A stretch of DNA of 64,000 nt from Eledone cirrhosa. Its lineage: Eukaryota. This document shows positions 58,146-58,856 of the stretch, in pieces. Where the stretch lies: NCBI GenBank assembly GCA_964016885.1, contig OZ024766.1, positions 11,470,001 through 11,534,000 on the forward strand. The letters are read 5' to 3'. Numbering within the stretch: the first letter of the stretch is position 1; every line of letters begins with the position of its first letter. The translations under genes were made by a program, and so were the position numbers. The notes beneath the pieces are model-generated. The model had not been told where the DNA came from. It ran no database searches and saw only the letters and a program-made list of their open reading frames with translations.

Positions 58146-58349
58146 CGATATCACTGCGCGTGGCAAAGAGGCCGGCGAAGCAGTGCCAACCAGCGATCTC
58201 ATAGAGAGAATATAGGTCGCCGCTTGGGGACTCCGTTTGTGGACATTACCGTGGACGGACGGAGCTGGAAACGGTCCGACAGGCAATGTCCGTGCCTGTA
58301 ATCGGAAGTGCCATCGCTGTCGGCCGACCGAAGACGGCGCTTTAGCGTC
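58146..58349 (+). ncRNA. Unassigned structured-RNA unit, copy 1 of 3
   Basis: Stems CTCCGTTTGT/ACGGACGGAG and ACAGGCA/TGCCTGT; TGGACAT (58240) is complementary to loop ATGTCCG (58286). Confidence 0.55.
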
Positions 58350-58401
58350 ATCTTGTCACATAGTAGTAGATAGATAGAAAGTATACAGCAAGGAATGGAA
58401 T

Positions 58402-58615
58402 GGAGCCGATATATATATATATATCACTACTCAGCAAACAGGCGGTCAAAAGGCAATTCGCACCAGTCAGAGATCCACTCGGAAGAATATAGTTCTCGAT
58501 TTGAGCATCACGATGGCAGATATAACAGGGAATAAAGTGGCCGGGCAACCAATGTTTGAGTCTTTCGTAAGCAGGAAAATGAAGGGCCGCCGACCGAAGA
58601 CGGTGTTTTTGCATC
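58402..58615 (+). ncRNA. Unassigned structured-RNA unit, copy 2 of 3
   Basis: Same motif order; CAGATAT (58517) pairs with ATGTTTG (58552); GAGA/TCTC replaces GCGA/TCGC. Confidence 0.5.
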
Positions 58616-58671
58616 CGGGATAAGAAGCGAGATAGATATAAACAACAACAACATCATTATAAAACGAAACG

Positions 58672-58856
58672 GGAGCCGATATATTACTACGCGGTAAAGA
58701 GGCCAGCGTAGTCGTAGTCAGCGAACCAAAGAATATAGGTCGCGGTTGGAGGCCCCCATTTGCGGACATTACAGGCTACAGACGGGCAGGAAAGATTGTC
58801 GGCTGGCAACGTCCGAGCGTTTGATCGGCAGACGACCGAAGACGGCGCATTGAGTC
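58672..58856 (+). ncRNA. Unassigned structured-RNA unit, copy 3 of 3
   Basis: Same motif order; CGGACAT (58763) with ACGTCCG (58809), 6 of 7 pairs. Confidence 0.5.

Follow-up and report, generated by a model that had tools for sequence, protein, structure and literature searches.

A triplicated, constrained array upstream of the HR3/ROR start exon of Eledone cirrhosa, best filed as a 5' cis-regulatory element

We have analyzed here a tandem array of three diverged units of ~200 nt within a 64,000-nt stretch of E. cirrhosa DNA (the window; contig OZ024766.1, positions 11,470,001 to 11,534,000). As judged from sequence, the units are real, occur at a single locus and contain blocks that are under selection. 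The array is best filed as a 5' cis-regulatory element, both real and under constraint, that is linked to a named developmental regulator, the nuclear receptor HR3/ROR. That it works as an RNA is a proposal.

The units and their conserved blocks

The three units, and the order of the motifs within them, had been described in an earlier note on this DNA and are borne out at the positions given below, together with the two invariant blocks.

58142..58352, + strand: unit 1, the best folded, with a predicted multiway junction, five hairpins and a possible loop-loop kiss (folding z -1.75)
58403..58618, + strand: unit 2, the most diverged, with a (TA)n expansion at its 5' end and no folding excess (z +0.70)
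58673..58860, + strand: unit 3, 76% identical to unit 1 (z -0.59)
58325..58337, 58591-58603 and 58833-58845, + strand: the invariant 13-mer CGACCGAAGACGG, which carries cUUCGg on the minus strand
58207..58219, 58484-58496 and 58730-58742, + strand: the invariant AGAATATAG block and near-RORE AATATAGGTCG, from motif matching

Pairwise identity among the three units is 62-76%, and 85 of the 177 gap-free columns in a sequence-only alignment of the three are invariant, including runs of 13 and 9. The invariant columns are clustered beyond chance when compared with shuffles (p=0.0038 for the 13-run, p=0.00025 for the runs of 13 and 9 jointly), which argues for selection on the repeated blocks. The 13-mer has three matches in the window at up to two mismatches, a number reached by 0 of 100 shuffles. 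The 3' end of the AGAATATAG block doubles as the 3' strand of a GCGA/UCGC (GAGA/UCUC) stem. Unit 2 has an 11-nt deletion between the complementary blocks termed kiss-1 and kiss-2, and in unit 3 the invariant 13-mer is preceded by a 15-nt deletion. The spacing from AGAATATAG to kiss-1 is, as the earlier note observed, the same in all three units, but it is weak as evidence of constraint, because indels are few, as judged from the other block spacings (28/34/25, 16/16/11, 46/35/46 and 39/39/24 across the units). These spacings differ by non-multiples of three and the blocks are mutually out of frame, bearing out the view that this is not a protein repeat.

The array is not an assembly artefact, since a single raw-data contig across 57900-58934 matches the window with 0 differences. 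One low-depth contig departs from the window at two places, with A>G at 58548 in unit 2 and an additional AAC repeat at 58640, representing either an allele or error. The reads of three RAD-seq runs fell only on simple repeats, with none on unique unit sequence.

The array is one locus in the 3.0-Gb genome, with a single DNA match. The search of this genome for paralogues used motif patterns, and so reaches copies that keep at least one of both motifs: a two-motif pattern gave 3 matches versus 0 for controls, and single-motif searches gave 6 and 43 matches versus 29 and 40 for reversed-pattern controls. Over all searches, the two-motif patterns returned the three units and two chance matches. 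Looser motif patterns supplied 36 outside loci, to which the second single-motif pattern, with 40 matches outside the array, contributed 30; the best nhmmer E among the 36 was 0.11, with matches on the seed words only, and the 11 of the 36 that were scored with an RNA model reached at best 11 bits, on the seed itself. No further units are present in 603 kb of sequence, nearly all of it flanks. A locus on another contig (L080:1398-1530) combines the 13-mer with two short unit-1-like strings; it scores 5.5 bits with the model and is treated as chance.

Metagenomes contained no homologues of the units, and an HR3 protein scan of metagenomes left 0 of 220 stretches confirmed. Viral contigs likewise held no homologues, with one match to a looser pattern, and prokaryote genomes gave four Parabacteroides matches to the unit pattern. 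These five viral and Parabacteroides loci, with model scores of <=5.8 bits on seed words only, were rejected as chance. The statement that the units belong to no known family holds up: Rfam 15 gave only two matches over 58000-58930 (E 1.9 and 3.1), the one match in the whole window at gathering score is a tRNA-like piece at 29801, with none over the units, and we found no description of the array in the open-access literature.

Relation to the HR3/ROR gene

The exons downstream of the array are those of a nuclear receptor, HR3/ROR (NR1F), and lie on the + strand, which is the strand on which the earlier note had read the array. The two database matches are octopod HR3 proteins, at 82-83% identity. 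All four full-length HR3 proteins in the database start with MSSNMKAQIEVIPCK, and the start exon codes for the same N-terminus. The features of the region are as follows.

60494..60621, + strand: HR3/ROR start exon, with a poly-T acceptor before 60494, the ATG at 60603 and a strong donor at 60622
57980..58935, unstranded: CpG-rich unique island with 75 CpG (o/e 1.3)
58083 and 58121, + strand: GT of candidate 5' splice sites upstream of the array (8.1 and 7.4 bits, generic matrix)
58879..58940, + strand: upstream ATG at 58879 and weak candidate 5' splice sites at 58886, 58928 and 58933 (3.5-4.0 bits)

The start exon codes for MSSNMK plus 1 nt (19 coding bases) and an intron of about 181 kb separates it from the first exon of the DNA-binding domain. 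Eight coding exons were found downstream, spanning contig positions 11711552-11794477. With the MSSNMK exon found at 60494-60621, the ATG at 58879 was dropped as a candidate HR3 start. The distance from the array to the HR3/ROR start codon, which is downstream on the same strand, is 1.75-2.46 kb, and the 5' UTR element that was among the options of the earlier note gains support from this position just upstream of the start exon. The nearest upstream gene found, GAK, ends about 165 kb away. This GAK/auxilin (cyclin-G-associated kinase) gene is on the + strand at contig positions 11313461-11362500 and has a large low-complexity exon at ~11345500-11347100.

Over the 168 kb that precede the HR3 start exon, CpG is strongest in this island. 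Among 336 windows of 500 nt between GAK and this exon, the two that cover the array rank first, with 38 and 35 CpG, and the next has 24. An upstream exon is expected because the start exon has a 3' splice site. From this need and the top-ranking CpG content, the island is likely to be the HR3/ROR promoter together with a non-coding first exon or the start of the first intron.

Several smaller features were seen in the region. An upstream ORF of 32 codons (58026-58124), with a high content of K, R, E and G, ends about 20 nt before unit 1 and is probably a by-product of purine-rich sequence. A 3-codon uORF at 60587-60598, 5 nt before the HR3 start codon, would occur in every splice form. Forkhead-like RYAAAYA motifs are found at 58139, 58434, 58638 and 58892 on the + strand, the motif being very common regionally (383 per 100 kb).

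Folding, covariation and strand

Taken whole, the array outperformed 25 of 25 shuffles in predicted folding, on the + and the minus strand alike. Among the individual copies, 2 and 3 lack any folding excess. The helices considered in detail are these.

58231..58264, + strand: unit 1 hairpin of 10 bp whose loop holds kiss-1 (58240-58246), from the shuffle test
58279..58299, + strand: unit 1 hairpin of 7 bp whose 7-nt loop is kiss-2 (58286-58292), from the shuffle test
58517-58523 / 58552-58558, + strand: unit 2 blocks CAGATAT / ATGTTTG (7/7 pairs, two of them G.U)
58763-58769 / 58809-58815, + strand: unit 3 equivalents of the kiss blocks (6/7 pairs)
58170-58177/58318-58325, + strand: long-range helix of unit 1, in register with unit 2 58441-58447/58585-58591

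The earlier note had argued for covariation on the + strand, but controls did not bear out any excess over chance. The RNAalifold energy of -18.1 was matched by 177 of 400 column shuffles. The best helix common to all three copies is the kiss, and 151 of 400 shuffles have one as stable on the + strand; the best covarying helix was reached by 82 of 300 alignments in which the consensus was kept and the variant bases randomised; and when 3-nt register shifts were allowed in a three-way test, 108-121 of 150 shuffles did as well. Directed tests for the predicted fold of one unit being kept in another gave values below 0.05 in 1 of 12 cases under each null. A hand-picked structure of 27 pairs, which was assembled post hoc, has 88.6% of its cells paired and 6 double changes and was matched by 22 and 38 of 500 lenient shuffles. 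These tests have low power because there are only three copies, and the outcome is absence of proof rather than disproof. Selection on the repeated blocks is supported (p=0.00025); selection on an RNA fold is a more tentative proposal, with covariation on the + strand at chance for three copies and the kissing geometry confined to copy 1.

The geometry expected of the proposed loop-loop pairing is predicted for copy 1 and does not hold for the other two (summed p 0.71 for copy 2 and 0.31 for copy 3). Each of the two complementary blocks of copy 1 occupies a hairpin loop, an arrangement found in 0 of 3000 shuffles with the invariant columns fixed (summed p=0.0013), or with p=0.005 on either strand by a looser measure, and opening both loops costs 2.9 kcal/mol versus -11.5 for kiss stacking. 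The long-range helix found in copies 1 and 2 is 7 bp long with two double transversions and is absent from unit 3; the top-3 helix sum for copies 1 and 2 was reached by 2 and 6 of 150 shuffles. Both the copy-1 tests and the copy-1/2 tests were selected post hoc, on features already seen. The hairpins that flank the copy-1 kiss are built of non-conserved sequence: 7/10 pairs of the kiss-1 hairpin are kept in unit 3 and 6/10 in unit 2 after a 1-nt shift, and for the kiss-2 hairpin 3/7 are kept in units 2 and 3. In the alignment view, the kiss pairing is an ordinary nested helix. The terminal hairpin of copy 3 has a G.A mismatch. Copy 1 is likely, on these predicted structures, to be the intact fold, with copies 2 and 3 partly eroded.

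The claim that G.U pairs work on the + strand only does not hold, as the copy 3 kiss has A.C on the + strand and G.U on the minus. The G.U pairs in the unit 2 kiss and in the terminal hairpin favor the + strand. Only on the minus strand does the kiss helix of copies 1 and 3 reach 10 bp, and the minus-strand alifold result was matched by just 10 of 200 shuffles. One G.U-rich minus-strand helix (2/300) was set aside as thermodynamically weak. The sequence signals thus point both ways as to strand, and the gene context favors +.

Regulatory readings of the array

HR3/ROR is a conserved transcription factor with roles in timing and in sterol sensing: its orthologue nhr-23 functions in moulting and clocks (PMC9377799, PMC10902330) and HR3/ROR in cholesterol sensing (PMC13199448). 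A triplicated constrained module at its 5' end would be a compact control element under either of the two main readings set out below.

The reading that we prefer, tentatively and from modeling of the folds, is of a triplicated element that acts as RNA within the leader or first intron of HR3 and would gate splice-site choice and translation. HR3 transcription would begin where the CpG island does on its 5' side; the position near 57985 is a guess. Each unit would fold to a multi-helix domain that offers AGAAUAUAG and CGACCGAAGACGG to a protein or ligand, and the three copies would provide an additive response. Use of the donors before the array (58083/58121) would produce a leader of 207-245 nt with 2 upstream AUGs, and use of those after it (58886/58928) a 1.0-kb leader with 9 upstream AUGs, the lengths in each case assuming a start near 57985. 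One AUG of the long leader opens a frame overlapping the HR3 start codon, and this would repress HR3. The folded array in the nascent HR3 transcript would then bias the choice between the short leader and the uORF-laden long one, and with it the output of HR3 protein. The candidate donors downstream of the array are weaker than the 7 donors of HR3 itself that were used for comparison, an eighth being left out; these score 5.9-12.8 bits with the same generic matrix. If the array does function as RNA, it would be among few large multi-helix repeated cis-elements in animal leaders and a candidate for riboswitch-like control in animals.

Short cis-regulatory hairpins are present in multiple copies in the 3' UTRs of several animal mRNAs, as in the MAT2A hairpins, the transferrin receptor IREs and the SELENOP SECIS elements. 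The array resembles these in having several diverged copies in one (here predicted) transcript with invariant unpaired motifs, but the three units do not conserve the motifs of these hairpins, and the modules here are ~200 nt long and at the 5' end. Tandem diverged aptamer domains in a 5' leader are known from the tandem glycine riboswitch. The units have tandem diverged domains in common with it, as well as the string ACCGAAG; unlike it, they have no Rfam match, lack its other aptamer motifs when inspected by eye, and are at a eukaryotic locus. A further likeness in layout is to the fungal NMT1 TPP riboswitch, which is placed in a leader intron between alternative 5' splice sites, with one product carrying repressive uORFs (PMC3597705). 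The predicted HR3 leader options share this layout, with 2 versus 9 upstream AUGs, although here there is no TPP aptamer (no Rfam match), the element comprises three 200-nt copies, the gene is that of an animal transcription factor, and the splicing is predicted. In its boldest form, the RNA reading has three tandem aptamers make up a riboswitch-like RNA, which would be the first of an animal. This RNA would sense a metabolite (for instance a sterol-linked signal) or the HR3 protein itself and would switch HR3/ROR from a short leader that is translated to a long one that is repressed, or back; we consider this very unlikely.

It is possible, if rather doubtful, that the units are instead three duplicated DNA promoter or enhancer modules, with near-ROREs for HR3/ROR or E75/Rev-erb and sites for other factors, the apparent stems then arising by chance or from DNA motifs present as inverted copies. 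The AATATAGGTCG of units 1 and 3 agrees with 10/11 positions of WAWNTRGGTCA, the RORE consensus (PMC10902330), and there are 11 such near-RORE sites in 664 kb, 2 of them in the array. However, unit 2 agrees at 9/11 positions and an exact RORE is present in 0 of 3 units, the final A being replaced by G, T and G. This last base, which is never A, switches together with its pairing partner, from C-G to A-U in unit 2. Conservation of the blocks with no significant covariation, and a folding signal that is equal on both strands, would fit DNA motifs, as would the array being a CpG island at the 5' end of a gene. DNA sites leave unexplained both the copy-1 hairpins in non-conserved sequence and the double transversions common to copies 1 and 2, and the 13-mer is without an assigned factor.

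The reading as DNA modules has precedent in HR3 orthologues, which are regulated through such upstream sites (PMC9377799, PMC3498158): ROREs are described upstream of nhr-23 (PMC9377799), and in Manduca a monomeric element bound by E75A is situated 2.4 kb before HR3 (PMC3498158). The likeness to nhr-23 and to Manduca and Bombyx HR3 is in repeated RORE-like sites that precede the HR3 gene by about 2 kb, and the difference is that the near-ROREs here are inside 200-nt triplicated modules with five further conserved blocks. If the units act as DNA, the array would be a probable HR3/E75 feedback module in a mollusc. Among insect 5' conserved elements (supplementary files of PMC4613772) we found neither an HR3 entry nor a unit motif.

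An unlikely reading is that the units are one or three separate structured ncRNAs. These might be made by divergent minus-strand transcription at the HR3 promoter, or might be processed out of the first intron. The minus-strand features noted above, namely the continuous 10-bp kiss helix of copies 1 and 3 and the alifold result, would fit such an RNA, and the 13-mer holds cUUCGg on the minus strand in all three copies. The UUCG hairpin is, however, a local minimum in copy 1 only, the kiss of unit 2 and the terminal hairpin require G.U pairs of the + strand, and we found no C box, conserved ACA, Sm site, box B or Rfam match. An H/ACA or C/D snoRNA was rejected on similar grounds: an H-like AGAATA is present, but there is no C box and no ACA at a shared position. 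The likenesses to xrRNA, SRP Alu, 7SK, vault RNA, tetraloop receptors and EcRE are partial, as judged by eye, and these identities were not retained. A connection to the Zmast/Zfest dosage-compensation lncRNAs was likewise given up, as the available part of the preprint mentions no repeat or structure and the HR3 context made the idea needless.

It appears highly improbable that the units are retroelement-derived, domesticated ribozymes of a class yet to be described that cleave themselves and so cut the HR3 pre-mRNA. The predicted compact junction-plus-kiss architecture of copy 1 and the invariant unpaired blocks would suit a ribozyme, but we found no known ribozyme core in the units, CUGANGA and the twister, pistol and HDV-like patterns all being missing from both strands. 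The absence of CUGANGA speaks against a hammerhead, and a loose HDV-like descriptor had 0 matches on both strands. Hairpin loop-B-like and group I S-like strings are present but, on inspection of the sequence, cannot close in the right topology. The former, in units 2 and 3, are only about 6 nt apart, and the essential C of the hairpin ribozyme consensus is G in units 1 and 3. The S-like string is found in all three units only 11-16 nt from an R-like block, with no Rfam match for a group I intron core. An origin in a retroelement, and equally the retroelement leader that the earlier note had listed, is unlikely for a single locus without dispersed copies, an element ORF or a repeat family.

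We give almost no credence to an old tandem triplication in neutral decay, which would account for the chance-level covariation and the microsatellite expansion in unit 2, but not for the clustered invariant runs of 13 and 9 or the retention of CpG.

Repeats were also recorded elsewhere in the window and around the gene. The tRNA-like piece on the minus strand at window positions 29801-29858 is a weak Rfam match (30 bits) that was not called by ARAGORN, the tRNA gene search calling none, and is likely to be the head of a tRNA-derived SINE. Fragments of LINE-type reverse transcriptase are present at window positions 17526-18488 and at contig positions 11649983-11655305, including a long two-ORF element on the minus strand within the first coding intron of HR3. 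Window positions 700-2200 contain a tandem array with a unit of roughly 78 nt, which recurs beside HR3 exons.
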